The notes below the pieces were generated by a model. The model had not been told where the DNA came from. It searched no databases and worked only from the letters and a program-made list of their open reading frames with translations. DNA of 64,000 bases. Origin: Prorocentrum cordatum (Eukaryota). The DNA lies in NCBI GenBank assembly GCA_963575745.1, contig CAUYUJ010000192.1:372001-436000 (forward strand), given 5' to 3'. The translations under genes were made by a program, and so were the position numbers. Of the stretch, positions 6,951 through 48,733 are shown one piece after another (position 1 is the stretch's first letter; each line of letters begins with the position of its first letter).

Positions 6951-7404
6951 ACTCGGCTCAAGAGCGGCAGCGGCCACCGTCGCTGGCTGGTCCTGCTTCG
7001 CCGGGCGAATCTTCGCGGCTCCAAATGCTCGCGCCTCGGTTGCCGAGGGGGGCGCGGGGAGGTCCACGCGCGAATCAGCTCAGCCCGGGCCCTTGTCGAG
7101 GGGGGGAGGAGACCATCATCGGCATCATCATCGCCATCGTCATCATCGCCATCATCATCACCATCACCACCATCAGCGCCACTCATTCATTCACTCATTA
7201 CGCAGCCATGCGTGCAGCGCGAGGAAGTCTCACGCGGGAGCCCCCTCCCTAAGGGGCACGCGGGTCAGGTTATTAATCTCGCGAGTTATTCTTCCCCTAC
7301 TCGCGGGTAACATTGCATTTCTTCCGTAGACGTCGCGTTTGGCTCAGCCCGCCGACTGCGATTGGCTCGGCACGCGGCCTCGGCAGCGACCTTCGCTGCA
7401 GCGA

Positions 7405-8742
7405 TGGAGGTTCTCGCGGCCCATTCTGGTCAGGCTGACAAAAGCTGTGCTGAGCTGGTGGCATCGCTCAACGCTTGCCCACCTCTACCGCGGGCCCCGA
7501 AACAAGGCAACGCCGCCCACCTTTACCGAGGCCTGCGAGCGCCCCCGCGACGCTCGGACCAGCACCCGAGAGCACGCAGAGCCTGCAGAACAGGAAAGCA
7601 GAGAATTCGATGACGAACGATGCGCTGCGCAAAATCGAAGCCACGATGTCAACGAGGGGAGAATTCACGACTCGAGCCGGTCAGCTGAAGTAGAAGGTGA
7701 AGCCGCAGGACTTCGCGCCTACACCCCTGCAGCAGAAGCTGGCCGAGTAACTGGCCAGTCGCGCACCAGAGGCGCAGGGTGCGAAAGCATGGCGCGAGCC
7801 GTCGAAGCAGGACCCAGTCTCGGAGCAGAAGTGGGCCCACGAGGGCCGGGCGCGCCACCATGACCAGCGGGTGCGGGACGACGAGGCGCAGGGCGGGAAG
7901 CGGGGCGAGCGGTGGGGCGAGGCGCAGGACGAGCGGGGCGAGCAGTGGGACGAGGCGCAGGACGAAAAGGGGGGCGAGCAGTGGGGCGAGGCGCAGGACG
8001 AGAAGTGGGACGAGCAGTGTGGCGAGGCGCAGGGCGAGAAGCGGAAGCAGCAGCATCGTCGGCGGTGCGACGCGGTGGACCCGCGCCAGCAGGCTGACAT
8101 GCAGAAGCGGCCCGCGGACGAAAAGGAGCAGTGGCCCAGCTGGAAGTGGGATGAGGAACAGCAGGCGCAGAAGCAGAAGTGGCCCGCGGACGAGTGGAAG
8201 CATAATCAGCAGTGGCTCCGCTCGGGGTGGGATCATGAGCAGCAGGCGCCGGAGGTCAAGGGGCCCGCGGGCCGCGTGGGCAGCGAGCGGAAGGAGCATG
8301 CCGATGAGCACTTGCAGGTGCCCGTGGACAAGGCCCAGTACTGGGCCTGCGACACAAGAGCAAGCAGATGGCAACCAGGCAGCCAACTGCAAATGCATCC
8401 GAGTGGCAGCGCTGGCATCAGGAGCAGGCTAAGGCGCTTGAGGCTGCAGCCAGATGGCATCGATACCAGGCCTGGCAGGCGACTGGGCAGTGGAACGCGG
8501 CTACACCTTCAAACTTGGAGTGGGTGAGGCAATGGGTCCCTCCAGGCAAGTGGGGGCTATTGCAGGACGGACTTCGCACGGGCGATGCTGAGACATGGGC
8601 GCGTGCGCATGAGCTGATGCGCGCGTGCTGGGCGACGTCTTCGGAGGAAGGTCATCAGGCTGCACAGATGCCGATGATGCCACCGCAGTACCGCGGAGAA
8701 GAAGGCGGCGGGGGAGCCGATGGTGGAGAACAAGCCCAATAA
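7405..8742 (+). pseudogene. Decayed ORF with W/E/Q-rich tandem repeats (EQWDEAQDEK)
   Basis: Protein-like pieces across frames with stops (MTNDALRKIEATMS.., NLEWVRQWVPPGKWGLLQDGL..); ~30-33 bp tandem repeat at about 7878-8040. Confidence 0.35.
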
Positions 8743-14152: not shown

Positions 14153-14561
14153 GGACGCCCGACATGGTCGGGTCGGGCGAAAGGGGGGGATAGCAAAGGG
14201 GGGGTTTGAGAATCAGCTCACGTAGCTGATTTTCCCGGCGCCTCCCCGCGCCGGGAGGCGCCCACGTATCGAGGAATGGGCCCCTCGGTGAGGCCGAAAC
14301 CAGCTGCATGCAGCAAATTTCGTAACCCCCCCTTTCCCAATCCCCCCCTTTCGCCCGGCCCGACATGGGTACCGAAAAAATGGGTACGATGCCCAACAAC
14401 ACATGTTGTCCCAAAGCAACAACGGCCGCTGTTGGGCCGGCGGCCTCCTGTCTCGAATGGACACAGGCCGCGGCGGCGTGGACAGCGGGGGCCCATTCAG
14501 AATGAACGGGAACTGCTGTTGGGCATTGTACCCATTCTTTCGGTACCCATTTCGGGCGTCC
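14153..14561. mobile_element. MITE M2, host of nested M1 copy 2
   Basis: Removing M1 and one ATG restores TIR ggacgcccgacatgggtaccgaaaaaatgggtac, which pairs with gtacccattctttcggtacccatttcgggcgtcc. Confidence 0.75.
14167..14364. mobile_element. MITE family M1, copy 2
   Basis: ~24 bp TIR gtcgggtcgggcgaaaggggggat / atcccccctttcgcccggcccgac; ATG on both flanks. Confidence 0.85.
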
Positions 14562-14746: not shown

Positions 14747-14943
14747 ATCGGGCCGGGCGAAAGGGGGGATAGCAAAGGGCAGGGTAGAGAATCAGTTCAC
14801 GTAGCTGATGTTTCCAGCGCCTCATGGCGCCGGGAGGCGCCCATGTATCAAGGAATGGGCCTGGCGGCGGGGCCGAAACCAGCTGCATGCAGCGAATTTC
14901 GTAACCCCCCCTTTCCCAATCCCCCCCTTTCGTCCGGCCCGAC
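14747..14943. mobile_element. MITE family M1, copy 3
   Basis: Same TIRs and internal sequence; CTG on both flanks. Confidence 0.85.
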
Positions 14944-15175
14944 CTGACCCGAACTGAGCGGAGACGAATTGCCCAGATGCTCGACTCGAAGCTGCCGAAG
15001 ATGCCCCCGGGATTGCCCCAGGACAACCCCCCAAACAGGCGGCATCTTCCTCGGACTGTGGTCAGCAGGCGCCACCTCGGTTGGCCCCGCGCCGAGGGCT
15101 CCAAGCGGCTTTCGCGCCGCCCGGCGGCGGAGAAGAGAGAGGGCTGGAAAAGCACGTCGGATGGCAGAAACAGTA

Positions 15176-15341
15176 CTCCAGATTTCGTGACAAAAGGGAG
15201 GGGGTCTGGACCCTCCAAGACAAACCATTTCAGACCTCCCCCGTGGGAGAAGCCTCCAAAACATCGTCCCCAGACCCCCCAGGCCCTCCAAGATAGCCTG
15301 GAAGAGACCCCCCCGAACTGAGACTCCCCTCCCGTTATTAC
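15176..15341. mobile_element. MITE M3 (left part); its right TIR is split by the retrotransposon and finishes at 22586-22596
   Basis: TA|ctccagatttcgtgacaaaagggagggggtct matches the reverse complement of the joined flanks, TA|ctccagatttc+gtaataacgggaggggagtct. Confidence 0.7.
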
Positions 15342-15529
15342 TTCCTCAAGCTAGGCGCGGCCACCATTCAACATACCTGAGACGGACGATACATTTTTTC
15401 TGAGGACGCGTCCTTACACAGGACGAGGTGCACTTGAGATACTATAATGCTGAGCTTGCGTGGCAGCTACGGGAAAAGGACCCGGGCCCGGATCAAATTA
15501 CCAGAACAGACTGCGTAGCATTGGCTCCC
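15342..15529 (-). repeat. Split direct repeat B2 (3' terminus)
   Basis: 188 bp, near-identical to 15683-15871 (a few substitutions and one indel). Confidence 0.95.
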
Positions 15530-15547
15530 CAAAGTGGGTAGGGAGGG

Positions 15548-15682
15548 AAGCCTTGAAACCAGAATGGCCGCGAGAGGGGAGAGCAGCAGCAGGGGCGACA
15601 AGCAGAGGAGAAAGAAGGAAGGGGTGGAGCCCCTCTCGCTTGGCCGCTCGACGCGGAGGAAAACTGCATCCAAAGATAATCA
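15548..15682 (-). repeat. Split direct repeat A2
   Basis: 135 bp, identical by eye to 22451-22585. Confidence 0.95.
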
Positions 15683-15871
15683 TTCCTCAAGCTAGGCGCG
15701 GCCACCATTCAACATACCTGAGACGGACGATCCACTTTTTTCTGAGGACGCGTCCTTACACAGGACGAGGTGCACTTGAGATACTATAATGCTGAGCTTG
15801 CGTGGCAGCTATGGGAAAAGGACCCGGGCCCGGATCAAATTGCCAGAACAGACTGCGTAGCATTGGCTCCC
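15683..15871 (-). repeat. Split direct repeat B1
   Basis: 189 bp copy of B directly abutting A2. Confidence 0.95.
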
Positions 15872-15880
15872 ACCCCCAAA

Positions 15881-17209
15881 TCATTTGTCATTGGGTGGGC
15901 GGGTTGGGAAGAAACAGGAAAAAGAAGAATATTCGCTAGGCGCCCGACTCGAACAAGCCACGCGAGAGACGAGGTGCCGCAGGTCCGCCGCCGTGAAGTG
16001 GGCAGCGCGCTGGCGGGCGGCGGCGGGCACAGCCGCACGTTGACGCAGGAGTGAGCCGTGCTTTTCATAGATGCGCGCAGACTCTCGAGCGCGCCATCTT
16101 CCTCGCTGCTGGATCTGATCCAGGCTGCGCAATTGCTCTAAGGCATCGCGCGAGGGGCCTCCGTGCCGAAGCTGGTGAGGCACGGAGAAAACGTGGCAAA
16201 GGCCCAAGTCAGAGGCCACGCCTCGCACCATCCTCTCGTATGCGCTGAGATTCAAAGGAGCAGAAAGCTTGGCCGCGTCTGCTCGGCCCCTACGGAGGGC
16301 AAGCAGCGCCGCCGGAACCTGACGCCTGAGGGGGACAGGCGTGCCAGCAACGACAGCGCGGTCGAACTCATTCGTCTTGGGGGGCACTCCGCCTGTGAAA
16401 GGCGCGATGATGACGGAGACCTGGCCCCCCGCACTGCCGTGGACGTCGCCCGCGGTGATGGAGAGCACCTCACTGGGCCGCAAGTACAGATCAAACTGGA
16501 CGATCATGGCCACGGCGGCGAGGGCCCCCAGTGGCGAGCGCTCCGAGAGGGCTGCCATGCAGGCGACCACGGCGTCGAAGGGGGCGGGCATCCTGGGATG
16601 CCGAGGCAGCTTGGCGCACCAGCCCGCCAGGGCGTCCTTGGATCGCACGAATTGAGGCTTGGCCACTGCCCATCCACGTAGTCGAGCAAGGCCGTAGAGT
16701 GCATTGCGAGCCATGTACTGAGGGGAACCAGAGAAGAAAAGGTGCTCGATGTACAGGTTCTTTGTCGTGTCGGCGTTCTTAGGGTCGTCAAAGAGAAGAC
16801 GCCGGCGCCGGGCCCAGGCCTCGAAGTCGGCGACCGCCTGCTGATACTTTGTCAGGGTCGCTGGCCGCAACGAAGCCGCGCGTAGGAAATCTCCCGGAGG
16901 CACTCGACGAGCTTGCCGCTGCTGCTCGGCGCGGTCCACGGCCGCTGCCGCTCGCCTGCGGCGCTCTGCCGCCAGCGCCCGACGGCCCCGCGCCTGGCCG
17001 CCGCCTGGGGGCGGGGCGGCGCCGCGAGGCCCGCCCGCCGCCCGCGGGGCGGGGGCGCGGGTCGAGCGCGGAGGCCCAGGCGGCTCGCCAAGGGAGCCTG
17101 AACCTCCGCGGGCAGAGCGGGAGCCCAGGGGCGCGGAGGCGGACCTCGCCCGACGCGGCTGCCAGGACGCCATCCCAAGTCGCGAGGTCTCGGGGCGTGG
17201 CTTGGCCAT
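15881..17209 (-). CDS. Tyrosine recombinase (phage-integrase family) of the retrotransposon
   Basis: Catalytic set: YLRPSE (R), PKTNEFD (K), PHQLRHGG (HxxR), RGRW (W), RIYEKHG (Y); N-terminal core-binding-like helices (TLTKYQQAVADFEAW). Start uncertain (ATG 17209 or 17173); overlaps the 3' end of pol in another frame. Confidence 0.9.
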   Translation of the reverse strand: MAKPRPETSRLGMASWQPRRARSASAPLGSRSARGGSGSLGEPPGPPRSTRAPAPRAAGGPRGAAPPPGGGQARGRRALAAERRRRAAAAVDRAEQQRQARRVPPGDFLRAASLRPATLTKYQQAVADFEAWARRRRLLFDDPKNADTTKNLYIEHLFFSGSPQYMARNALYGLARLRGWAVAKPQFVRSKDALAGWCAKLPRHPRMPAPFDAVVACMAALSERSPLGALAAVAMIVQFDLYLRPSEVLSITAGDVHGSAGGQVSVIIAPFTGGVPPKTNEFDRAVVAGTPVPLRRQVPAALLALRRGRADAAKLSAPLNLSAYERMVRGVASDLGLCHVFSVPHQLRHGGPSRDALEQLRSLDQIQQRGRWRARESARIYEKHGSLLRQRAAVPAAARQRAAHFTAADLRHLVSRVACSSRAPSEYSSFSCFFPTRPPNDK

Positions 17210-20200
17210 AGGCGGACCTCGGGGCGGAGAGGGAGGCGATGCGCACGAGCTCTCGGCACCGCTCTGGGAGGTACGCGCCAGCCAAGGTAGTCCGCCAAAC
17301 CCAACCCCTCGTCGGATGTCGGACTTTGCCCTGAAGAACTTCCCGATGCGGCTGGCAGCACTGGCAGCGGCGGCCCAGCAGCTCCAGGCTGGGGAGCGCG
17401 CCGGCGATCGCCCCCGGCTTCTTGAAGGGCGCCCCGAAGCGGCAGGAGTCGTACTCGATCCTGCCGGGCCTGTGGTAGCGGAGCTCCCTCTCCAGGGGGC
17501 GCCAGCGCCAAACACGGCTGGGGCCAGGGTTCTCGAGGAGAACGAAAATGTCGAGCTTCCTGCAGAGCTTGAGCACCCGCACGGCGAAGCTGACAAGAGC
17601 GAGGTCTGCCGGCCGAGGGGGCCGATTGCCCCCGGCCGGCACCCAGTGGGCACACGGAAGGCCAATATGTATGCACCAAAAGCGGCGCTGGGTAATCCAA
17701 GCCAAGATAGTGTTACGGACTCCAGGATGCGCGAGGTCGCGATGCTTGCCGTGCGTGATGTCCAGAGGGCAGGCGATGCGAAGACCGGCCTCGTGGAAGG
17801 CCCCCGATAGGTTCGCGCCTCCGGCAAATAATTCCAGGAAGCTGGTGCGCCCAGTACGGTGGCCCCGCGGGGCCGTGGACGAAGACCCCGAGGAGCACCA
17901 CTTACGAGGCCCGCTGCAAGCCCGAGGAGGAGCCGAAGAACTTGATGACCCAGTTTTGGGACCTTGACTTGGCGTTGATGCCGATGGCCTGGCCCACGAC
18001 GCCCAAGAAGCCGAGGACGCAGGGGGCCCAGCCAGGGGTCGCTGATGAGCCGATGCCGTTGGAGTCCCAATGCGAGGCCAGTGGCCCGACGTAGAGCTCG
18101 ATGGCCCGATCTGTGAACGATAACCTGTAAGTGGTGTCGATGAAGTAGAGCACGATGGAGGAGGGGAAGGACAGGATGGGAGCACCGACTCAGCTGGGGT
18201 GGTAGAGAGGATGATCCCTTGTGCGAGGTCCTCGCTCCACTGTCCAGTGCAACCGATAGGTTTCTCCCCAAGCCCTGGCGGCTCGGAGACGCGGCTCGAG
18301 GTAGGCCGAGTCGCGAAGGCAACGCTGGCGACGGGGGAGGGCCCGGGCACGTCAGGCCCTGGGCCGGGCAAGCTGCCGCTGGGCCCCACGACGGGGGCGC
18401 CCCTGCTGGGCGCCGGCGGGCAGGCCCTGAAGCCGGCCCCGCGGAGCCAGCCAGGCAGGAGCTCACGGCGGTCTGCGGCCCGGCTCCCCCAGTCGGCAAC
18501 GTTCACACATCCTGGAACGTGTCGCACTCGCCACGTGATCTCGGCGCCCAGCTGCAGGGCGCCAGCGCGACGACATTGGGCGAGGAGCTCTCGGTTGCTG
18601 GCACGGCCCTTCGCGAAAGACAGCACGCTGGAGAGGTTGTCAGAGAGGCTCAGGAGCTCGGCCCCACGGCAGTTGGCCTGCCGGGCGGCGGCCCCCAACC
18701 CGATCACCGAGGCCCGCGCCTCCAGGCTGTGGATGCGGCCTGGATGGCGCCAGGCGCCGCGGAAAGCCTCGGCCCACCGCTGCGGGTCGACCAGCTCGGG
18801 CGGCAGCGGGGGCGGGGGGGGGCCCACCTCCATCTCCTGGCGACGGCGGCGGGCTCGCGCCTGTCGGCGGGGACGTCCCGCGCTTGCGTCGCCGAGCTCG
18901 TCATAGTACAGGTCGGAGACGTCGTCCAGCCCTGCAGCGCGGCCCAGGTAGGCGCCCCCGTCGGGGTCGCCCGAGACCTCGACCTCCTTGAAGCGCTGCC
19001 TCTCGCGCCACCGCGACACACCAAGGACCTCGTGCCCCAAGAGCTCGGCCTCGCAGACGGCGTAGCCCAGCATCGAGCTGTCCGTGGTAAAGGACACCGG
19101 CGCAGGGGGTCGGCGCAGGTCCACCTGGCCAAGAAACACGAGGCCAGCGGCGCAGCGAAGCTCCGTCACCACGCTGGGCGGCAAACGGGAGACGCCCTCC
19201 ATCGGGCCAGACTCGAAGTAGGCGTAGCACTCGCCCAGGACACTGAGGGCAGGCCGCATGATGCTGAAGTAGTGCACGATGTGCCCCAACAGCCTCCTGA
19301 CCTGCCAGCGAGCCAGCCGCGGCCTGCGTAGAACCTCATGTAGACCAAGGTACAGGCGCCAGGCTCGCCGAGAGGTGCGGCGAAGGCGCCCGTGCCGCCC
19401 GTCGAACTCGAGACCGAGAATACCCTGGGACAAGGCGGCGTGCTGCAACTCGTGCCAGCGCAGCCCCCTCTTGTCCAGCTCGTCCGTCACGGCGCCGAGG
19501 CGCTGGTCGAGCTGGGCGGCGCCCAGGGAGATGAGGTCCGCGTTGTCGACGTAGGGCGCGTGGGCGACCCCCCCGTTCAGCAGGGGGGGCGGCTTGCCCT
19601 TGTCCAGGCACCAGGAGTCCTTCTCCCCGAAGACGGCACCCATGGTGTCGATCAAGACCTCCTGGCAGATCCACAAGGCCCAGGGCCATCCCATGGGAAG
19701 GGCCTCGAAGCAGGGCCAGACTCGAGAGTCCGGGCTGATGTCGATGTAGCGGCCGAGATCCTCGTCGTGCAGCTGAGTCACCCCCAGCTCGCCGGCAGAC
19801 ACCTCGATGTCGAAGCACATCCAGGAGCCCCAGGCCGGGTGGCGAAACTGGTAGAAGCCATCCTGCAGGTCCACCGAGCCGGCCACCAGGTCGCCCCCGT
19901 TGATCACGATGTCCAAGTCGTCGGGGCCGAGGTCGGTGGCGTCCACGAGGCTGATGGCCGCGAGCGCCTCACCTGCGGCCAGCGCGGTCTTGGGCGGGAG
20001 TCGCTGCAGTTGATTAGCCTGCCGAGCGCCCAGCACCATCCTCTGATCCCCGTTCTTCCTACGCGCGAAGAACGCGGAGATGCACGACTTCCGACGGGCC
20101 CGAGCACCCACGAGCCCCCGTAGGGCCAGTGCACGAAGAAAGGCCACGAGCGCAGGGCGCGTGCCGCGCCGGCGCGGGTCGAGCTGCGGGCCCCAGTAGG

Positions 20201-20441
20201 GTTGCACCAACGGCTCGTCCTCGGTGAGCTCGGAGAGCGGGCGGACGACGGCAGAGTCGAAGTTGGCCATCACATCCCTGACGCTCTGAGGGGCCACGTC
20301 GTCGAGTGGCGTTGAAAAATGTTCCTCACGTAGGATGTTGAGGCGGCTCGGATCAAAATCGACCACGGTCGTGGACGCGTCGAGGCCACCGTAGACGCCC
20401 CTGGTCCTGAGGAGCTCCTGTAGGGCTCCAGCGCCATCCAA
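16788..20441 (-). CDS. pol: Pol polyprotein: reverse transcriptase + DIRS-type RNase H + C-terminal C5-cytosine methyltransferase
   Basis: RT: SVDLQDGFYQF, LPMGW, YVDN (19553-19542), ILGLEFD. RNase H: FTTDSS, IHSLEARA, LSDNLS, HVPGCVNVADWGSR. MTase: FLELFAG, GLPC, LLENP. The true N-terminus probably extends upstream through frameshifts to about 20780. Confidence 0.92.
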   Translation of the reverse strand: MDGAGALQELLRTRGVYGGLDASTTVVDFDPSRLNILREEHFSTPLDDVAPQSVRDVMANFDSAVVRPLSELTEDEPLVQPYWGPQLDPRRRGTRPALVAFLRALALRGLVGARARRKSCISAFFARRKNGDQRMVLGARQANQLQRLPPKTALAAGEALAAISLVDATDLGPDDLDIVINGGDLVAGSVDLQDGFYQFRHPAWGSWMCFDIEVSAGELGVTQLHDEDLGRYIDISPDSRVWPCFEALPMGWPWALWICQEVLIDTMGAVFGEKDSWCLDKGKPPPLLNGGVAHAPYVDNADLISLGAAQLDQRLGAVTDELDKRGLRWHELQHAALSQGILGLEFDGRHGRLRRTSRRAWRLYLGLHEVLRRPRLARWQVRRLLGHIVHYFSIMRPALSVLGECYAYFESGPMEGVSRLPPSVVTELRCAAGLVFLGQVDLRRPPAPVSFTTDSSMLGYAVCEAELLGHEVLGVSRWRERQRFKEVEVSGDPDGGAYLGRAAGLDDVSDLYYDELGDASAGRPRRQARARRRRQEMEVGPPPPPLPPELVDPQRWAEAFRGAWRHPGRIHSLEARASVIGLGAAARQANCRGAELLSLSDNLSSVLSFAKGRASNRELLAQCRRAGALQLGAEITWRVRHVPGCVNVADWGSRAADRRELLPGWLRGAGFRACPPAPSRGAPVVGPSGSLPGPGPDVPGPSPVASVAFATRPTSSRVSEPPGLGEKPIGCTGQWSEDLAQGIILSTTPAESVLPSCPSPPPSCSTSSTPLTGYRSQIGPSSSTSGHWPRIGTPTASAHQRPLAGPPASSASWASWARPSASTPSQGPKTGSSSSSAPPRACSGPRKWCSSGSSSTAPRGHRTGRTSFLELFAGGANLSGAFHEAGLRIACPLDITHGKHRDLAHPGVRNTILAWITQRRFWCIHIGLPCAHWVPAGGNRPPRPADLALVSFAVRVLKLCRKLDIFVLLENPGPSRVWRWRPLERELRYHRPGRIEYDSCRFGAPFKKPGAIAGALPSLELLGRRCQCCQPHREVLQGKVRHPTRGWVWRTTLAGAYLPERCRELVRIASLSAPRSAYGQATPRDLATWDGVLAAASGEVRLRAPGLPLCPRRFRLPWRAAWASALDPRPRPAGGGRASRRRPAPRRRPGAGPSGAGGRAPQASGSGRGPRRAAAASSSSASGRFPTRGFVAASDPDKVSAGGRRLRGLGPAPASSL
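17240..17845 (-). other. C5 DNA methyltransferase domain within Pol
   Basis: Motif I FLELFAGGANLS, motif IV GLPC, motif VI LLENP, motif VIII-like CRFGAPFKKP, motif X-like LAGAYLPERC, in canonical order. Confidence 0.82.
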
Positions 20442-20850
20442 GTCGGTGGGCCGATCTCCAAAGGCCCCGATCCGACGGCGGATGCGCCTGAGCGCCGACT
20501 CTTGAGCGATGTCGGCGCTCCCAGGGGCCGAAGCACGACGCCCCTCCCAGCACAGGCGGCGGCCATCCCATTGAGGGTCGTGATCGCCTCGATGGCACGG
20601 GCCGAACGACGATCAGCAGCGGCAGCACGCTGTGCCTTATACCGAGGCAAAGCGGCACGTTCCCCTTCGCGGTGGATGCGAATAGAAGGCGTCCGTGACC
20701 GGAAGCGGGAACAAAGATGGGGCCCCCGCGAGGAGGAACCCTCGACGGGGAGGCAGCCGCGGTCCAAGGTGGAGGCCATGGTGACGCGGTGCGCCGACGG
20801 CCGCGGCGGAGGTCGCCACGGCCGAGGGGGGCGCGGAGGCCCCCGGCTCG

Positions 20851-22032
20851 CTAACCAGCACCGCCAGGCCCAGCCCCGGCCTTGCCCTTCGGCTTGGCCT
20901 TGGGGCGCGGGGGCCTTGCCTCGTCCCTCTGCTCGTTGCGGTACTTATTGTCCTCGTGGTCGGCCTCCTCCCTGTACATCCTCTCCTGCTTGAGAACGGT
21001 GCTCCTCGCCTTCTGCTGGTCGGCGACCCAGGCATCGAACTTGGTCGTGACCGCCCCGCCCGAGTCGTCGAGCCGACTCGAAACCATCAGCTCCAGGCCC
21101 TCGAAGGAGGGGCGGCGAGGGCAACGCTTGACTGCCCTCTGAATCTGGAGGCCCCGGCGGCTCAGGAGCTCGAACGAGGCGAGGTTCGAGACGTCCAGCG
21201 CGTCGAAGACCAGGGCGTGGTGCAGGACCTCGACGATGTTCTTCAGCTCCTGGGCCACCGCACTGCCACGCGCGACGCCCGACTGGGCCACCCAGAAGCC
21301 CCAGTAGGACGAGAGCGAGTGCCCAGAAGAGACCACGGCAGCCAGAAACTCGACCAGGGCCTTGGGGCCCTCGAAGGGCCAGTCGTCCACGTCCACGCTC
21401 CTCAGCAGGGCCACCAGCTGCGCCAGAGAGACGGTCTGAGCGGAGACGCCCGTCTGCGGCAGCACTCGGCGGTCCCTGCCAGGACCGGCCCTCTTCTCCG
21501 CCTTCCAGTCGGGCTCGTCGGTGAGCTGGACGTTCTCGGCGGCGACCCAGCCCTCGGCCTCCGACAGCATCACGAGAGCGACGGCGTCGCGGCTGATGAA
21601 GCGCTCCGCCGAGGTGATCAGCTCCAGGCTCACCTCCTCCCCGAAGTGGTCGCTCGCGGGGTCGGAGACGATCCACCTCGGGACGTCGACCCCCGCTTGC
21701 ACCGCAGGGAGGGGAAAGCCCAGCACCTTCGCGAAGTTGCGGCCGTCGCGGCGGAGGTCGGAGAGGTCGGCGTCCGAGAGGGCTCCAAACGCGTAGACCT
21801 GGCCTCGGACTCGCTGGGGAAAGGTGGCCGCCCGAGGAAGGGCGACCACTAGGTACTCGTCCAGCTTCAGAAGATAGATCTCGGCGTCGGGCGCGGCGGC
21901 CACCCAGTGTCCAGGCGTGGGAGAGGGAACCAAAAGAACTCTGTGGTGCCATCTGAAGTTCGGGTCGTCGTCGAACGCGATGCAGACCTGGCTCTCGGAG
22001 ATGTCGAGAGTCTCCGGCCCCCGCGCGAGCCA
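20851..22032 (-). CDS. Gag-like ORF1 of the retrotransposon
   Basis: Frame is open for 393 codons from the TGA at 22035-22033 (..PETLDISESQVCIAFDDDPNFRWHHRVLL..), with strong GC3 bias, lying upstream of pol and ending in a basic tail. Gag is called from position only; there is no in-frame ATG at the 5' end. Confidence 0.65.
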   Translation of the reverse strand, partial: WLARGPETLDISESQVCIAFDDDPNFRWHHRVLLVPSPTPGHWVAAAPDAEIYLLKLDEYLVVALPRAATFPQRVRGQVYAFGALSDADLSDLRRDGRNFAKVLGFPLPAVQAGVDVPRWIVSDPASDHFGEEVSLELITSAERFISRDAVALVMLSEAEGWVAAENVQLTDEPDWKAEKRAGPGRDRRVLPQTGVSAQTVSLAQLVALLRSVDVDDWPFEGPKALVEFLAAVVSSGHSLSSYWGFWVAQSGVARGSAVAQELKNIVEVLHHALVFDALDVSNLASFELLSRRGLQIQRAVKRCPRRPSFEGLELMVSSRLDDSGGAVTTKFDAWVADQQKARSTVLKQERMYREEADHEDNKYRNEQRDEARPPRPKAKPKGKAGAGPGGAG

Positions 22033-22428
22033 TCAGCCACGGATGGCCCTAGGCCAGGAGGCAGGAGCGGCAGCGCCGTCGCCTGGCGGACGAGCCGGCG
22101 CCCGCGAGGTGAACCCGTGCAGGATGGCTGCGACGGGGGCGCAGGCCGCCAGCGCCGCCACGGCGCACAGCACGCCCAGGACCCAGCCCAGCACCAGCCA
22201 CGAGACCCAGTCCAGCGACGCCGGGACGGGGATCGGGCAGGACAGCTCGGGGCAGGGCCGAACGTCAGGCGCTGCCGGGCACGCCACGGCGGGCGCCGGC
22301 GGGCAGTTGCCGCAGGTGACGTTGACCGATCCGCAGGGAGGACAGGCCGGGCAGGCAGGACACCGGCTGGCCCGGACTGAAACCAGTGCCGCGCCCCACT
22401 GCCCGAGAGCCGCGAGGGGAACGGGCAT
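22033..22428 (-). CDS. Small Cys/Pro-rich single-pass membrane protein (ORF0) of the retrotransposon
   Basis: 131 aa: MPVPLAALGQWGAALVSV, CPACPACPPC..NVTCGNCP..CP..CPELSCP, hydrophobic helix WVSWLVLGWVLGVLCAVAALAACAPVAAIL; ATG lies 23 nt inside repeat A1's inner edge. Confidence 0.6.
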   Translation of the reverse strand: MPVPLAALGQWGAALVSVRASRCPACPACPPCGSVNVTCGNCPPAPAVACPAAPDVRPCPELSCPIPVPASLDWVSWLVLGWVLGVLCAVAALAACAPVAAILHGFTSRAPARPPGDGAAAPASWPRAIRG

Positions 22429-22450
22429 GCGGAGCGGCGCAGGCCCTTGC

Positions 22451-22585
22451 AAGCCTTGAAACCAGAATGGCCGCGAGAGGGGAGAGCAGCAGCAGGGGCG
22501 ACAAGCAGAGGAGAAAGAAGGAAGGGGTGGAGCCCCTCTCGCTTGGCCGCTCGACGCGGAGGAAAACTGCATCCAAAGATAATCA
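22451..22585 (-). repeat. Split direct repeat A1 (5' terminus)
   Basis: 135 bp, identical to 15548-15682. Confidence 0.95.
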
Positions 22586-24871
22586 GAAATCTGGAGTATC
22601 AGTGCCGCGCCCGCCGGACGACCCACGGCCCCTAGCAGCGTGCTGCTGCGCCAAGGAGGCACCAGGCTCTTGGAACCCCCGCGGGACAGAGCGACGCAGC
22701 GCGTGCGTGCCACCGATACGCACTCCCCAGAGATCCGATGCCGTGATTCTGTCCGATACGAGGTCCCCGGAAGTCTCGACCCACTCCCCAGGACCGATTT
22801 TTCCTCCTGAATCGTTGTTTGACGGTCCCGGGACCCCGCGAGGGCCCCTATAGGCCGTAAATTGCGAAAAGCCTGCGCCTTGATTGTTCTCAATGCGTTG
22901 GACCTCTGGGTTATCCCTCGCGGGCGGGCGGGCAGGTGGCGGCGCGCGCGCGGGAAGGCACGCGGGCGCGGCACAGGGCGGAGACAGCCCGCCCAGACCC
23001 GAGGCCGCTTGGGCCCCTCCGGGCCCGGCCCGGCAAAACTCACGGGGCTGGCCCTTGGGCGCGTGCGGCGGGCGGGCCGCAACCAGCGCCAGCGCCCACG
23101 GTTCCCTTCCTTGCGGGCACGCTCAAAAATTATATGTTTTGTGGGTGAGCGTCTTCTGATTGGGCGTTTCGACATGGAGCGGAAGCGGGGGGGAGGGTCT
23201 GGCTCCAGACCTCTGCTTCATGCAACTGATTGCAGCAGTGCTTCCTGTGGGGGCAGGCTCCACCTCCAAGATCTACTCTATGGGAGGGGAGGGAGGGTGC
23301 GAGGGCCCGCGCCGATCGGCAAAACAACGAATCAACAAACGATCACTTGCAAGGACCGACCACAACGATGTTTGAAGCGCGTTGGCGTGTAAGGTCGAAA
23401 ACGAAAAAGAGTCCGAGCGTTTACAGCGAAACGTTCGAAACGATAACTACGGGTGCAAGCAAGCACGAAAACGACACGATGCCGCTCCATGGGCCAAGCA
23501 AGTGCACCAAGCGCCAGCATGGGTTAGGGATCCGTGGAACTGGCGCGTGGTCGCCAGATCCACGAAGTGGGGGCAATGTCCCTCGAAGCATCGCGCCAAC
23601 GCAGCCTCAATTAGCGACGCAAGGCGCCGATCCTGCATGGAAACGGGGGTCTTCGCCGATGAACGGGCCTGAGGCCATGTTTAGCGCTTCGTTGATCCGT
23701 CCTCCTCCTCCTCCTCCTCCTCCTCCTCCTCCTCCTCCTCCTCCTCCTCCTGCAGAGAGGCCTCTGAAGAACATATCTCCGCGCCACCGCACCGGCGAGA
23801 GACCTCTGGGCCTCGGCCCGATCTTTCCCAGGGCGCAGCCTTCGCTCGGGAGGCCGGCGGAACAGCACGCCGCGCCCCGCCAGACTCTCCCGCGCCCAGG
23901 CAGAACTGAGGGGCCACGATGTGCACGGTTTCCCCCGGGGCCGCAGGCGACCCGAGGAGGAGGAGGAGGAGGAGGAGGAGGAGGAGGAGGAGGAGGAGAT
24001 GGCGGAGGAGGAGGAGGAGGAGGAGGAGGACGAGGAGAAGGAGGAGGAGGAGGAGGAGGAGGAGGAGGAGGAGGAGGAGGAGGAGAGGGAGGGGTCGCCT
24101 AAGCCCTTCGGAGAAACCCTCCACCACGATGGGGGGGCTTGGCTCTGGGGGGAGAACATCGACCTGTAACTGGCGATGCATCGCCGACAGAGCGGCGGAG
24201 CAGGCCCCCGGCAGCGAATCCGAACACGCTCCTGGGCGGGGGGAGCTGCCACGCCCCTGTCGGCGAGCAGTGTGCGGTCGGGAGGCGATTCGTCCCCCCT
24301 GAGCCTGTGCCCCCTCACGTTGTCGCCCCCGAGAAACTCTTGGGCAACGGACGCCGCCGCCCCCGGCCTGCCCCCGGCTTCTTTTTCTCGTTGTCCTCTC
24401 GGAGCGGACTCTGGACATTGCCTTGGCTGCACCCCGGGACTAGGCCCGCATAGGCGGGCCTCTGGCACAGGAAGTGCCCCGCGAACGAATTCGAGGCTGG
24501 CTAGCTTCTGAGAACCTCTCTGTTCGCTCGAAGCGGACTTTGAACGTTGCCTGGGCTGCACCTCGAGACTAGGCCCGCTTCGGTGGGCCTCTGGCACAGG
24601 AAGTGCCAGCGAACGAACTTGAAACTGACTGGCTTCTGAGAAGAGAGTCTGTCCGCTAAAAAAAAGCCTCTGCTCTGTTCAGGAATCTGCCCAAGCATGC
24701 TGCCAGTTGCGAACACCGCCAGGCTTAATTCAGCCTGCCGAACACAACTGATTCAGACTGATCGACGCACGGCCGATCGATCGGAAGCACCGCCGGGCAC
24801 AGAGGCCTTCAAAAAATGCCCTCGTGGCACAGCTCAGGGCACACACGGAGGCGGCACTTGCAGCGCGGCCC

Positions 24872-43050: not shown

Positions 43051-44599
43051 TCAGCATGCGGCTCTCGCCCCAGCGCTGCGCACGTTCGCTTCAAAGTGTG
43101 CCAGCAATTTCACGGACAGAGGTTGGGTCCTTTTCAGAATGTGCCTCTCGCCTTCGCGCCGCGCACACCCGTGTTGAGTTCGCAACGACTTCACGGATGG
43201 AGAGCGGGGCGATTTCAAAATGTGGCTCCCGTCCCAGCGTCGCGCACATTCGTCTCAAAACATGGCAGCCGCCTCTCAGGTGGAGGGCGGTTCCTTTTCA
43301 AGATGCAGCCCTCGCCGTAGAGCCACGCACAGTCGTCTTCGTATGTGCGACAGGTTCATGAATGATTGAAGACTGTCAGGACACACCCTTCACGTTGACT
43401 CGCGATGTTGAAATCCCAGAAACGGTGTTCTGGCACGAGTGAAGATGGTCAGGACGCTACTATCATGACATGTTGATCCGCGGCGTTCAATTCACAACAA
43501 AATTGAGATTTCACTGAAAATTGTCTTCTAATGAGCCACCTCCCGCAATGATTGTTTTAGGGACCTATGATGAGGGAGCTTTGAGGGAGGGTTATTGCAT
43601 CATCGTTCGTGCGTCTTGGGTTTACGCTAGTCCTCATTCTCCCCCTCCCCGTCCCACACCTCCTCCCTTCTCCTCCTCCTCCTCCTCTTCCTCCCCTTCC
43701 TCCCTCCTCCTCCTCCTCCACCTCATTCCGCATCCTCCTCTCAGGCCTGTCTCTTTGCTAGGCGCTAGGTCCTCGGTGATGACATCTGGCCGATGACTGC
43801 AATTGTAATGGTCGTCGTTGCCTGTCCTGCTTCGTCGTGTGTGCCTCCTGGATATTCACTCATCCTTGCCTCACTGTCCCACAAATCGACCGGAACCCTG
43901 AACCCTTCTGCACCGTATTTCGAGCCCGATCGATCCGTGAGGGTCTCGGGGGCCTGAAGCAGGGCAAAGCCGCGCGTTGTCCAACAATAACGACGACGGG
44001 GTCTCAGGGCTCGGTGGCAACTCGTGGGAGCCTCCCATGCCGTCTTGTTGGCTCTTGCGAATCGATCTCGCCGACGCTAACCGACGACTTTCGACCCTGG
44101 ATCGACGCTGACCGATGCTAAGTCGGCGCTCCCTCATCGATGACAAAACGCTGGCGCACGCGAGTGCACTCGAATGACGGCGTCACGAGGATACGCAAGG
44201 CCCCCATGATTTGCTACCGGGTCAGGGGCTTCCCTTAGGTTGGGCATGTCCTCCTACAGGCTGATTTTGGACGACAAATGAAACATACAAAAACAAATAC
44301 TCAAACAACATCCACAAAATAGTCGAACAATCGTCGCCAGACTGTTTTTCCCCACATCCACAGTGGGGCTCTTGTTTTCTCTGGACACCCCGCGCAGGAA
44401 CACACAGGAACACACACTCACTCACACTCACATTTATTCACACAGAGGCCATCTTGATCACCTTGACCATGCCTCGACCACACACTCACTCACCCACCCA
44501 ACCAATCATCTGCATCATCATGATCATAATCATCATCACTCATTCACTCATTCACTGACGCCCTCACTCACCCACTCATTCGCTAGTTTGGAGATGGGG

Positions 44600-45153
44600 G
44601 AGGTATCCGGCGGAAGCCTCGTCTGTGAGTGAACTGTGAGGAAGTCTCACGCGGGAACCCCCTCCTCATGGGGCCCGCGCGTCATGTTTTTTAAATCCGA
44701 GCGGGTCATCCTCAACCCTGTAACTGTCTTCACTTTGGGGCTCCCGAAGCCTGAATATGGAGGAAATATCGGGCGGGGAGCCTCGTGTGTGAGTGAACTG
44801 TGAGGAAGTCTCAGGCGGGAGCCCCCTCCCTATGGGGCCCGCGCCTCACGTTTTTAATCCGAGCGGGCCATCCTCAACCCTGTAACGTCGCCTCTCTGGG
44901 GCTTCTGAGGCTTGAATATGGGGAAAGTATCAGGCGGGAGCCTCGTCTGTGGGTGAACTGTGAGGAGGTCTCACGCGGGAGCCCCTTTCCTATGGGGCCC
45001 GCATCTCATGAATTTAATCCGAAACGGTCACCCTCAACCCTGTAGCTGTCGCCACTCTGGGGCCGCCGAAGCCTGAACATGGAGGAAGTATCAGGCGGGA
45101 GCCTCGTCTGTGAGTGAACTGTGAGGAAGTCTCAGGCGGGAGCCCCCTCCCTA
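44600..45153 (+). repeat. ~161 bp tandem repeat, about 3.4 copies
   Basis: gcctcgtctgtgagtgaactgtgaggaagtctca recurs at ~44616, 44780, 44940 and 45101; a partial solo copy lies at ~7221-7280. Confidence 0.9.
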
Positions 45154-45659
45154 GGCGCTCTTCAGAGGGCGATTTGTCCGACCCATCAGGTGAGGAGGAC
45201 AAGGAAGAAAAGGAGGTGATGACGACGACGGCGGCCGGGCGCAGGGGGAAACCCTCGCGTCCGGGCCGGGGGTTGTAACACATTTTCGGCCGCAGCGGGG
45301 GCATGGGGAAACCTTTGTCTGCGGGCTGGCGGTGGTAACCCATCGTCAGCCAAATCTGGGAGGGTGCGCCGCTGGATCTCCCCAGGGGGGGGGGGGGGGG
45401 GCCTTCCCCGATCCGTCGTCGGGGACCCCCCCCCTTCCCCGATCCGTCGTCGGGGACCCCCCCCACCCCCCTTTCAAAAGGGAGAGGGGGGGGGTCCGAA
45501 CCCCCCTCCCCCCTTTTGGCCGCCCCCCCCCCCCCCTCTCTCCCTTTCGCCACGCCGCCCCCTGACTCCAGAACCCGACCCCCGCCACCCCTACCCCTAG
45601 TCCTCACCCAAACCCAATCCCCTAACCCGAACCCCAACCACTAACACCAGCCCCAAAGA

Positions 45660-47040
45660 GTACTCACTACTCATTACTCCCTACCCACTACTGTCTAATC
45701 GTTACTCGCTACTCATATGTCACTACCCCCTACTCACTACACACGACCCACTACTCACTATCCACTACTCAGGACCCACCACCCACTACTCGCTACTCAC
45801 TACTCCCTACTCACCACACCCTCCTCCCTACTCACTACTCACTCCTCACTACCCACAACTCAATACTCGCTACTCACTAAGCACTACTCACTACTCCCTA
45901 CTCACTAATCACTACTGGTTACCCACGACCAACTAATCCACTACTCACTACTCATTGCCCGCAAATCACGACCCACTACTCGCTACTCGCTACTCCCTAC
46001 TCCCTAGACAATGCTGACTACACAGTACTCAGTACGCACTACTCAATACTTCCATACTCGCTACTCAATACACACTACCCACTCCCCGCTACTCACTACT
46101 CGCTACACTCTACTTACTACTTCCTACTAACTAATCACTACATAGTCTCTAGTCGCAGGTCACTAGTCACTTGTCACTAGTCACTACCCACTACTCACTA
46201 CTCACTAATCGCTATTCACTACCCACCATCGCTACCCACTTCTTACTACTCACTGCTCACTGCTCCCTACTCCCTACTCTGTACTCACTACTCGCTACTC
46301 GCTACTCCCTAGTCGTTACTCACTAATCACTAATCACTACCCACTGCTCACTACTGACTACTCTCTACTCACTGAGATCACTCACTACTCGCTACTCCAT
46401 ACTCGCTACTCACTACACACTACCCACTGCCACTACCCACCACTCTCTATTCATCACTACGCACTACTCACCACACACTAAGCGCTACGTACTACTCAGT
46501 ACTCACTACTCACTACTCGCTAGTCGCTACTCACTACTCACTACTCAATAGTCACTACTCACTACTCACTACGCGCTACGCACCACCCACTACTCACTTC
46601 TCACAAATCACTACTCGCCTCCCACTACTCACAACCCACGACTCATTACTCCCTACTCCCGACTCAGTACTCACGATTCGCTACTGGCCACTCACTTGTC
46701 ACTACTCACTACCCACGACGCACTACGCACTACCCACTACTCACTACTCACCAATCACTACTCGCCACCCACTACTCACTACCCACGACTCACTACCCAC
46801 TACGCATTACTCCCTACTCCCTACTTTGTACTCACTACTCACTACTCGCTACTCACTACTCACTACTCACTACTCGCCACTCACTACTCACTTATCAGTA
46901 CTCAGTACTCATTATTCACTACTCACTACTCCCCTCGCCACTTAGTACCCACTACTCACTACCCAACACTCACTACTCACTACGCACTAACTTACTACTC
47001 ACTACTCACCACTCCCTACTCCCAACTCCGTACTCCCTAC
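45660..47040. repeat. Degenerate (CACTACT)n heptamer satellite
   Basis: Dominant ctcacta/ctcgcta/ctcccta units over 1.4 kb. Confidence 0.9.
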
Positions 47041-47292
47041 ACACCTTCTCTGGCGCAGAAAGGAAAAGCGAGACAACCCCCCCGTCCCCGGCTCCATTTC
47101 CGGCGCAATGGGGGGGAGGGGGGGAGGGGTTCGCACCCGAAGTGGTACGAATTACAACCGACTAAGACCGATCCCAACCGTTCGGGGTGAATTGCAACCA
47201 GAAAAGAGACCAATTCCAACCACAAATGAGACCAATTCCAACTCAGCCAAAAATGAGACCAATTCCAACCACGGATGGGATCTTCAGAAGTC

Positions 47293-47303
47293 CTACTACT
47301 ACG

Positions 47304-47348
<45 letters not shown>

Positions 47349-47349
47349 G

Positions 47350-47394
<45 letters not shown>

Positions 47395-47437
47395 GTACTA
47401 GTACTAGTACTAGTACTAGTACTAGTACTAGTACTAG

Positions 47438-47533
<96 letters not shown>
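47293..47533. repeat. (TAC)n/(TAGTAC)n microsatellite, left of the array
   Basis: Direct reading of the sequence. Confidence 0.95.
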
Positions 47534-47534
<1 letters not shown>

Positions 47535-47976
47535 GGATGTAAAAAAACTAAACGCGAAACCCATCCGTAACATTGAATTCCGCCATTCAAAGATATGGAA
47601 CGCAAGCTAGGCATGAACGGCCCAAGGTTGAAAAAATGTTTCCGTGTTTCGCGTTTATTGTTTACATTTTCGCGGGCAGCTGCCGATCTTGCCCTACCTG
47701 GAACTCGCGGCCTTTGAATGGCGAAATCCAATGTTATGAATAAATTTCGCGTTTATTGTTTACATCCACGGCCTTCCAGCAACGCTAACTTAGTATCCCT
47801 TATGCGCTACTTACGTGATATTGAACAAACGAATAGTAGCCAGCGTGGCCCCCGAACGTCGATGTCTTGCAATCCACGCGGTGCAATCTAGGCGGTGCAA
47901 CGCATGCTATGCAACCTAGGTAGCGCGAGCCACGCGGTGCAGTTCATGCAACGCACAGCGACGCCAAGCAACGCTA

Positions 47977-48733
47977 AGCAATGCAAAGCAACCAAACCAA
48001 AGCACAAAATGGCCTAGAGCTGGCTCCGGGCACCCAAAATGTGGCCTGGGCGTTGTGTTCTGGGAACACGAAGAGCACAAAGTGGCCTACTGTTGGCTCC
48101 GGGCACTCACGATGTGGCCTGGGAGTGGTGTTCTGGCAAGATGCATCGTGATTCCAGACAAGAGTTTCACACTTTCCAACGTTATGATTTGTTGCGTCCT
48201 AGCCTGGCTAGGACGAAACGAACATGAAAGCCACGAAGTGCGATAGGGTTGCAACTTTCCAACGTTATGAATGCCTTTTTGGAGCTCTGGTGCAGGACAT
48301 CCCCACAAAAACGACGCCGTTCGTAACGTTGAAATTTCTTGAATAAAGAATATTCGAATATTCTTATTCAAGCGTTTCCAACGTTACGAACGGCGTCGTT
48401 TTTGTGGGAAGTCCTGCACCAGAGCTCCAAAAAGGCATTCGTAACGTTGGAAAGTTGCAACCCTATCGCACTTCGTGGCTTTCATGTTCGTTTCGTCCTA
48501 GCCAGGCTAGGACACAACAAATCATAACGTTGGAAAGTGTGAAACTCTTGCCCGGAATCACGATGCATCTTGCCAGAACACCACTCCCAGGCCACATCGT
48601 GAGTGCCCGGAGCCAACAGTAGGCCACTTTGTGCTCTTCGCGTTCCCAGAACACCACTCCCAGGCCACATCTTGGGTGCCCGGAGCCAACTCTAGGCCAT
48701 TTTGTGCTTTGCTTTGCGTTGCTTTGCATTGCT
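47977..48733. repeat. 757 bp spacerless palindrome (first of one per array unit)
   Basis: Centred on aagaatattcgaatattctt (48355/48356); arms pair out to agcaatgcaaagcaac / gttgctttgcattgct. Confidence 0.92.

Follow-up and report, generated by a model that had tools for sequence, protein, structure and literature searches.

The 64,000-nucleotide (nt) stretch of DNA analysed here (the window; contig CAUYUJ010000192.1, positions 372,001 to 436,000, deposited under the dinoflagellate Prorocentrum cordatum) carries at 15342-22585, on the minus strand, a retrotransposon copy with split direct repeats and a polyprotein (Pol) in which the reverse transcriptase (RT) and RNase H are followed by a domain predicted to fold as a C5-cytosine methyltransferase. 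A repeat search of the window gave the order A1-ORFs-B1-A2-B2 (ORF, open reading frame), with the following parts; the basis of each assignment is given in brackets.

22451-22585, minus strand: A1, the 5' terminal repeat, 135 nt (100% identity to 15548-15682)
22036-22428, minus strand: ORF0, 131 codons, ATG at 22428, with Cys-rich CPxCP repeats and then a hydrophobic segment (translation)
20854-22032, minus strand: body of ORF1, 393 codons, presumably Gag-like (frame; homology to the N-terminal parts of the relatives P0004, P0005 and P0013)
20524-20779, minus strand: N-terminal segment of Pol, ATG at 20779, in a frame other than that of the RT (three-frame translation)
16791-20612, minus strand: main Pol frame, 1274 codons from stop to stop, holding the predicted RT, RNase H, a Pro/Ser-rich linker, the methyltransferase and a low-complexity tail (frame, relatives)
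19200-20105, minus strand: predicted RT, limits approximate, YVDN box at 19553-19542 (family profile, relatives)
18333-19112, minus strand: putative RNase H, limits approximate, with a D..E..D..D pattern from FTTDSS (residue 508) onwards (motifs, relatives)
17178-17882, minus strand: modelled region of the C5-cytosine-methyltransferase-like domain, core ~17232-17840 (model, alignment, profile)
15884-17209, minus strand: candidate tyrosine recombinase ORF, 442 codons, conserved from about residue 108 (weak Pfam match, profile, invariant residues)
15683-15871, minus strand: B1, the internal copy of repeat B, adjoining A2 (repeat comparison)
15548-15682, minus strand: A2, the internal copy of repeat A (repeat comparison)
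15342-15547, minus strand: B2, the 3' terminal repeat, of which 15342-15529 is the clear copy

The two copies of repeat A (22451-22585 and 15548-15682) are identical at 135 of 135 nt, and those of repeat B (15683-15871, 189 nt, and 15342-15529, 188 nt) differ by three substitutions and one single-base indel, which corresponds to 97.9% identity. B1 joins A2 directly, with zero spacer, and the coding part between A1 and B1 measures ~6.6 kb. The last 18 nt of B2 (15530-15547) align only loosely with sequence upstream of B1. No further copies of A or B were found elsewhere in the window, and a comparison confined to the two flanks (15250-15341 and 22586-22700) revealed no short duplication common to them beside A1 and B2. 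This is the split-direct-repeat arrangement of PAT-like and Ngaro elements, A1-internal-B1-A2-B2 with B1 abutting A2. Together with the recombinase ORF, the repeat comparison confirms a preliminary description of the locus, in which a split-direct-repeat tyrosine-recombinase retrotransposon had been recognised. The same description had called the element complete and had suggested that the insertion is young. Completeness holds for the ends, where both the A and the B pair are present, but not for the coding part, which is broken by two frame-disrupting indels; a young age agrees with the identity of the A copies, but less well with the four differences between B1 and B2 and with the two lesions.

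The stop codon of ORF0 (TGA, 22035-22033) overlaps an ATG (22033-22031) in the arrangement TGATG, and this stop-start overlap between ORF0 and ORF1 suggests a plan of four ORFs. Such a layout had been proposed before and is plausible, given the overlap and a related contig from a public sequencing run (X1), in which this ATG and ORF1 share one frame. In the present copy the body of ORF1 continues the frame of ORF0 beyond the TGA, and the ATG at 22033 lies in a different frame. ORF1 was uncoupled from this ATG by one extra base near 22014, which the contig of run X1, reading in frame, does not have. At E ≤ 1 no Pfam family was found in ORF0 or in ORF1, and for ORF1 the ESM Atlas returned no match of 0.9 or more. 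ORF0 aligns with the N-terminus of the relative P0005, within a tblastn match that runs from 22428 to 20857 at 44.7% identity. The same arrangement of CPxCP repeats and a membrane-like hydrophobic segment opens P0005, a P. cordatum gene model from a subfamily that is ~45% identical, and because it is kept at that distance ORF0 looks selected rather than spurious.

The second lesion lies in Pol. The first in-frame ATG of the main Pol frame is found only at 20270, and the segment that starts from the ATG at 20779 is read in another frame. At 20523/20524 the contigs of two further runs, X2 and X3, each have 10 extra nt that are absent here, and in the relative P0013 (88% identical) the Pol N-terminus and the RT part are read in a single frame; the N-terminus of Pol was thus cut from the RT frame by a 10-nt deletion. 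Reinserting the 10 nt would restore a reading that matches P0013 and would give an intact Pol of about 1333 amino acids (aa) from the ATG at 20779. A programmed frameshift at this position was considered and rejected, since relatives have 10 more nt at the same spot and read through. Each lesion is supported by one or two contigs, and the single-base difference in ORF1 could be an assembly error. The contigs of runs X1-X3 hold small shares (0.19, 0.09 and 0.07), and their depth is not a measure of copy number. One contig each of X1 and X3 also skips 201 or 190 nt at 19247-19449, in the RT-to-RNase H part of Pol; the flanks of the skip are short (25 and 33 letters), and it may reflect a deletion present in some related copies, or else an error of mapping.

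Within the main Pol frame, YVDN is found at residue 354, FTTDSS at residue 508 and FLELFAG at residue 925, followed by PC and ENP, and 420 nt at the end of Pol are shared with the recombinase ORF, which is read in a different frame. The earlier observation that FLELFAG, PC and ENP follow in the frame of RT and RNase H, with an overlapping recombinase behind them, is therefore confirmed for the frame 20612-16791 and the ORF 17209-15884.

The identity of the two enzymatic domains preceding the methyltransferase was approached through relatives. A family profile (A1), built from the methyltransferase segment of the window and 40 relatives, mostly full-length Pols, matched RTs of retroelements and retroviruses in the PDB, with 7sr6 as the best match (E 3.6e-4) and feline immunodeficiency virus, human immunodeficiency virus and Ty3 enzymes among the others. 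RVT_1 was detected in 4 of 41 and 10 of 43 relatives (14 of the 84 scanned sequences), in one case (P0136) above the Pfam cut-off. A phmmer search with the single Pol sequence against the PDB sequences found nothing. Taken with the YVDN box, the profile and family matches point to an RT as expected of the DIRS order. For RNase H, the family consensus contains the acidic series DSS, KE, DN and RNxxDxxSR, and PF00336 (hepadnaviral RNase H region) matched 4 of 43 relatives, exceeding the cut-off in a single case. The corresponding part of the window had no direct Pfam match, and an RNase H in this copy is supported, not proven.

The domain that follows was modelled with AlphaFold2 from a 41-row alignment, using residues 911-1145 of the long frame (17178-17882), and the model reached a pLDDT of 91.5 and a pTM of 0.88. 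Foldseek returned 133 PDB matches at E ≤ 0.001, and among the matches listed (34) all were catalytic domains of DNMT3A, DNMT3B or DNMT3C, with E values from 7.8e-8 to 2e-6 and a probability of 1.00. When the model was aligned with VIA to 48,161 representative chains, the top 12 were without exception C5-methyltransferases (Z 12.1-10.2, 186-211 residues aligned), led by DNMT3A (Z 12.1, 201 residues aligned), DNMT3B (12.0), a prophage methyltransferase (11.9) and M.HhaI (11.6); the remainder comprised EhMeth, DIM2, MET1, DNMT1, M.MpeI, a Shigella enzyme, S. pombe Dnmt2 and the DNMT1 chain 3av4. Dehydrogenases with a Rossmann fold followed at Z ≤ 10.1, with ~150 residues aligned. A viral structure library likewise returned cytosine methyltransferases. 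Viral enzymes of 199-225 aa match the domain model end to end and are a possible alternative source of the domain; the methyltransferase of Tetraselmis virus 1, for example, has 218 aa and a TM score of 0.56/0.60 against the model.

Sequence profiles lead in the same direction. A domain-only profile (A3) of 28 sequences, 22-52% identical, found DNMT2 (4h0n) as its best PDB match (E 2.7e-4), in an alignment that extends from motif I to the Pro-Cys and places the PC of the profile on the PC of DNMT2. Nine of its 11 PDB matches at E ≤ 10 are C5-methyltransferases, including DNMT2, bacterial enzymes and DNMT1/MET1, with two unrelated proteins making up the rest; no DNMT3 is among the 11. Pfam DNA_methylase (PF00145) was detected in 1 of the 84 scanned sequences, a member of the set of 41 relatives (E 4.5e-4). 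No Dam-type N6-adenine methylase or other methylase family of Pfam was found in Pol at E ≤ 1. The nearest ESM Atlas cluster carries the automatic name cytosine-5 methyltransferase family (score 0.97), which we treat as a lead only. The model, Foldseek, VIA and profile A3 agree that the domain behind RNase H is predicted to fold as a C5-cytosine methyltransferase, which the preliminary description had set beforehand as the test of its reading, and the interval it had proposed for the domain (17240-17845) matches the core at ~17232-17840.

The conserved motifs were located in the 28-sequence alignment, on the minus strand; their nucleotide coordinates were derived by arithmetic and are approximate.

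Domain residues F19 and G21, minus strand: motif I, FxG
~17657-17652, minus strand: motif IV, PC (P76 C77), with the predicted nucleophile
~17534-17526, minus strand: motif VI, ENP (residues 117-119)
Domain residues around K155, minus strand: motif VIII-like FGxPx(K/Q/R)KPT, which reads FGxPxKKP in the window

Seven residues are invariant in the 28 sequences (G21, P76, E117, P119, C147, C173 and H179), and C77, N118 and K155 are conserved in at least 90%. An acidic residue after the second strand and an Asp-Leu, at the positions of motifs II and III, are conserved as well. In a wider set of 69 full-length domains, PC is kept in 56 and E[NS]P in 60. C5-methyltransferases canonically have FxGxG as motif I and QxRxR as motif VIII. 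By its sequence, the domain departs from both of these and keeps the Pro-Cys of motif IV and the Glu-Asn-x of motif VI. The residues C147, C173 and H179 form a Cys/His mini-insert at the position of target recognition that could be a metal site.

How widely the domain occurs was assessed with a HMMER search of the 1160-aa ATG-started Pol against 1.84 billion representative proteins. Matches numbered 4295 at E ≤ 1e-3, 1751 at E ≤ 1e-10 and 337 at E ≤ 1e-30, with E values down to 1e-216. Among the 150 best representatives of the 4295, the methyltransferase domain was present in 95; it followed the RT in 93 of the 93 that had both, and it was found in 78 of the 84 that reach at least 300 residues past the RNase H match. 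Contigs of three public runs also span 17046-18060 at ≥88% identity, so that other copies, contrary to what had been named as a possible objection, do retain the domain. Word-based searches returned 9 and 13 proteins, of which 6 and 7, respectively, were P. cordatum entries labelled 'unnamed protein product'; these were all of the named ones. They are 28-80% identical in the methyltransferase region, and by this comparison the closest named relatives of the element are Prorocentrum cordatum proteins, which make a dinoflagellate of this genus or one close to it the very probable host. No Symbiodinium-named protein appeared in these searches, which is weak evidence since they were candidate-limited. 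One relative (P0007) is a P. cordatum model named N(6)-L-threonylcarbamoyladenine synthase (PF00814) in which one stretch is 80% identical to the methyltransferase domain; the model has probably joined a host gene to a piece of a transposon. A 13.5-kb metagenome contig (L001, 47% G+C) contains at 7051-7609 a weak methyltransferase-like piece spread over two frames and no RT, and was not used as evidence.

The recombinase was recognised from its catalytic half. Phage_integrase matched the window ORF with an E value of 0.073 over positions 14-167 of the 172 in the profile, and matched the same region of two relatives, 47-48% identical, with E values of 0.026 and 3.9e-4. In an alignment of these three sequences, R244, K278, H345, R348, W372 and Y381 are invariant and are candidate catalytic residues; the R-K-HxxR-W-Y set of the window ORF fits the catalytic set of tyrosine recombinases. 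A profile of the three matched the integrase 3nkh in the PDB (E 0.057) over the Arg-Glu box and the HxLRH box. None of the ORFs of the element matched an rve (DDE integrase) or protease family at E ≤ 1. On these results the element carries a predicted tyrosine recombinase in place of a DDE integrase and lacks an aspartic protease, as in the DIRS order. In 16 of the 150 best Pol representatives (for example P0027, P0068 and P0095) the recombinase is part of the same predicted protein as Pol, usually after the methyltransferase. In P0109 it stands between RNase H and the methyltransferase, so that two or more domain orders exist in the family. In hidden Markov model searches of the kind suggested earlier, RVT_1 was found in relatives and a weak Phage_integrase match in the recombinase, but no Pfam family in the Pol of the window.

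Among known elements, the repeat anatomy resembles that of the PAT-like and Ngaro groups, which, as Goodwin and Poulter reportedly set out in 2004, have A1-internal-B1-A2-B2 termini, a recombinase rather than a DDE integrase, and no target-site duplication. The element is like them in its split direct repeats and in its predicted recombinase in place of a DDE integrase; in the two flanks compared, no target-site duplication is visible. PAT-like and Ngaro elements are not known to have any methyltransferase but a Dam-like adenine one, if they have one at all. In the present element the slot after RNase H is occupied by a C5-type domain. With DNMT3A/3B and the compact viral C5-methyltransferases this domain shares the predicted fold, the motif order I-IV-VI-VIII and a short target-recognition region; it differs from them in its low identity (12-19%), in the replacement of the motif VIII arginines, in its Cys/His set and in being part of a retroelement polyprotein. 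DAM-DIRS elements are also of the DIRS type and also carry a DNA methyltransferase, the classical one of DIRS elements, which the excerpt of a recent preprint used here (bioRxiv 10.64898/2026.05.21.726589) describes as Dam-like, N6-adenine-specific and structurally unrelated to the C5 type; they differ from the present element, with its predicted C5 fold and no Dam family in Pol at E ≤ 1. The same excerpt names SymbioDIRS-DNMT3, SymbioLINE-DNMT and streptophyte Gypsy-DNMT3 as known transposon-borne DNMTs, and reports a DNMT4-like module in elements of Euglena and Collodictyon.

The closest published counterpart is SymbioDIRS-Dnmt3 of Symbiodinium (de Mendoza et al. 2018, PMC5890265), for which we rely on excerpts of the paper. 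According to these, the element has A-coding-B-A-B repeats, a DNMT located in the Pol ORF that also encodes RT and RNase H, and an ORF of its own for the tyrosine recombinase, and it exists in two variants that differ in domain order. Its DNMTs were detected with PF00145 and placed in the Dnmt3 clade, and the isolated DNMT domain carried out de novo CG methylation in yeast; the RT of Symbiodinium DIRS elements is too diverged for the Pfam seeds, and SymbioDIRS-Dnmt elements show no CpG depletion (PMC5890265). Compared by description only, the two elements have in common a dinoflagellate host, the A-coding-B-A-B layout, the DNMT in Pol, the separate recombinase ORF, an RT that escapes the Pfam seeds and a sequence without CpG depletion. 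They differ in host, which here is most likely Prorocentrum and not a member of the Symbiodiniaceae, in the extra upstream ORF0, and in the methyltransferase, which in the window is invisible to PF00145, ~210 aa long, has KK for RxR and contains the Cys/His mini-insert. The preliminary description was right that the fusion of RT and C5-DNMT is not new in itself, since the excerpted text reports the same architecture. Its suggestion that the four-ORF layout with PAT-like ends may be a distinct family is not supported by those ends: they do not set the element apart, because exactly that A-coding-B-A-B layout is published for SymbioDIRS-Dnmt3. Judged from sequence, the distinguishing feature is the methyltransferase, which is compact, Pfam-invisible and has KK for RxR. 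No description of a DIRS-borne DNMT element in Prorocentrum was found in the literature searched. The phenomenon and the layout are known, and what is new is the host lineage, the compact Pfam-invisible methyltransferase and the very large Pol family.

The whole is best explained, with a probability that we put at roughly 0.8, as a copy of a DIRS-order split-repeat retrotransposon whose Pol-borne C5-methyltransferase most likely methylates the element's own cDNA or circle. Several observations weigh against this explanation. In the methyltransferase, motif VIII has (K/Q/R)K where RxR is usual, motif I keeps neither its second nor its third glycine as a conserved position in the 28 sequences, and the target-recognition domain is reduced to ~40 residues, which include C173 and H179. 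Because of these departures, the activity or substrate of the domain could differ from those of canonical enzymes. PC is absent from 13 of the 69 full-length relatives. No sequence among the 84 reached the Pfam cut-off for PF00145, and in the second set of 43 relatives there was no match even at E ≤ 0.01. The Foldseek matches to DNMT3 have TM scores of only ~0.45-0.57 at 12-20% identity, and the margin of the VIA comparison over generic Rossmann folds is ~2 Z units, which is modest but consistent. As for the element as a whole, the Pol of the window has no Pfam family at E ≤ 1, all Phage_integrase matches of the recombinase are below the Pfam cut-off, and the label PAT-like is drawn from repeat anatomy alone. 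As read, the copy is unable to make a full-length Pol or ORF1. With 67.7% G+C and a CpG observed/expected ratio of 0.95, the element shows no CpG depletion and therefore no methylation footprint. The ratio in the flanks ranges from 0.77 to 1.33, so that the cDNA, which had been described as CpG-rich, is indeed not depleted of CpG but is no richer in it than its surroundings.

The alternative that we take most seriously, and to which we give a little less than even odds, is that the domain is the DNMT of SymbioDIRS-Dnmt3 after long divergence and the element an ordinary member of that published family. The identical layout (A-coding-B-A-B, DNMT in Pol, separate recombinase ORF) speaks for it, as do the RT that in Symbiodinium DIRS elements likewise escapes Pfam seed alignments (PMC5890265), the first rows of the Foldseek search, all of which are DNMT3, and the domain order of P0109, which recalls the two orders in the published excerpts. 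Against it, SymbioDIRS-Dnmt3 was found by means of PF00145, a model whose cut-off none of the 84 sequences reach here, and the placement of the domain near DNMT3 depends on the method: Foldseek ranks DNMT3 first, but the VIA Z-scores tie DNMT3 with bacterial enzymes, and the 11 matches of profile A3 comprise DNMT2, bacterial enzymes and DNMT1/MET1 without any DNMT3. Compact viral methyltransferases of ~210-220 aa, moreover, match the domain end to end, and the candidate-limited searches named no Symbiodinium protein, a point of little weight. Since its best sequence-level match is DNMT2, a tRNA methyltransferase, and its target-recognition region is unlike that of DNA enzymes, the domain might instead methylate RNA in the manner of DNMT2, either the element's own transcript or a primer tRNA, and so affect RNA stability or priming; RNA methylation is raised as an idea for a LINE-borne (long interspersed nuclear element) DNMT in the excerpts of PMC5890265. 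We regard this as improbable, as the DNMT2 match is limited to the generic motifs I-IV, the best structural matches are DNA enzymes (DNMT3, M.HhaI), and the domain stands beside RNase H in Pol, as does the SymbioDIRS-Dnmt3 domain that methylated DNA in yeast.

The replaced arginines of motif VIII, the single invariant glycine of motif I, the minimal target-recognition domain and the 13 of 69 relatives without PC would also suit a catalytically dead relic that serves Pol as a structural, S-adenosylmethionine-binding or DNA-binding module. The odds of this seem poor to us: the catalytic Cys is conserved in at least 90% of the 28 sequences, the Glu of ENP is invariant and the acidic residues of motifs II and III are kept, and retention of motifs at 22-52% identity is the pattern expected from selection on catalysis. 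That the likeness to methyltransferases is a chance match between a generic Rossmann fold and short motifs is, in our estimate, highly improbable. Short-chain dehydrogenases do reach Z 8-10 against the model, and Pol has no Pfam match, but the best 12 of 48,161 chains are all C5-methyltransferases, with ~50 more residues aligned than in the dehydrogenases; the motif order I-IV-VI-VIII is kept and conserved, and the PDB matches of profile A3 are C5-methyltransferases.

The life cycle of the element is likely to run as follows. From this copy and its relatives, the intact plan would comprise ORF0, a Gag-like ORF1, a Pol consisting of RT, RNase H, linker and C5-methyltransferase, and the overlapping recombinase. 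On established models of PAT, Ngaro and DIRS replication, transcription would run from A1 to B2, RT and RNase H would make cDNA, the ends would be joined into a circle with the internal B1-A2 junction as template, and the recombinase would insert the circle without target-site duplication. The methyltransferase, carried with RT in one polyprotein, would most likely act on cytosines, probably in CpG, of the new cDNA or circle, and a new copy would thereby enter the genome pre-marked like host DNA. Its catalytic activity, DNA substrate, CpG context and benefit to the element are proposed here by analogy with SymbioDIRS-Dnmt3 as portrayed in the excerpts of PMC5890265.

The surroundings of the element show some further features. 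Just past the end of B2 lies a direct repeat of 187 nt (14181-14367 and 14760-14946, 88% identity) with internal G-rich/C-rich inverted repeats, and just outside the other end long runs of (CTC)n (23700-23751) and (GAG)n (23954-23998) face each other ~200 nt apart. The G+C content falls from 57-72% in the first 44 kb of the window to ~52% or less over the last 18 kb, the change falling at ~44000-48000, and the GC skew is strongly negative at 46-48 kb and 62-64 kb. A Pfam search of 20 long frames elsewhere in the window gave only a weak match to Tetraspanin (E 0.007), and the surroundings provide no context for the element.

Few lineages are known whose retrotransposons have a cytosine methyltransferase of their own (bioRxiv 10.64898/2026.05.21.726589). 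The present copy extends the DIRS type beyond the Symbiodiniaceae, most likely to Prorocentrum. Since phenomenon and layout are already in print, the surprise for a specialist is moderate. The methyltransferase module, in a stripped-down version that escapes Pfam, is nevertheless present in most of the examined members of a Pol family of 4295 clusters. Because such a conserved module is invisible to Pfam, counts of transposon-borne DNMTs that are based on PF00145 are likely to be too low. More tentatively, and in our view on the unlikely side, the domain may have been acquired separately from that of SymbioDIRS-Dnmt3, perhaps from one of the small cytosine methyltransferases of viruses, and may form the regular third domain of Pol in a very large and mostly uncharted tyrosine-recombinase lineage, which numbers thousands of clusters, at 50% identity, across public genomes and metagenomes. 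Were this so, cytosine methyltransferases borne by retroelements would be far more numerous than PF00145-based surveys have found, de novo CG methylation in dinoflagellates could in large part stem from such elements, and the C147/C173/H179 insert would act as a zinc-type module of a new kind that reads DNA in place of the target-recognition domain. Independently of its origin, the domain offers a minimal natural C5-methyltransferase of ~210 aa for biochemistry, and it bears on a question left open in the excerpted text of PMC5890265, namely whether elements of this kind came before or after the unusual methylome of dinoflagellates.

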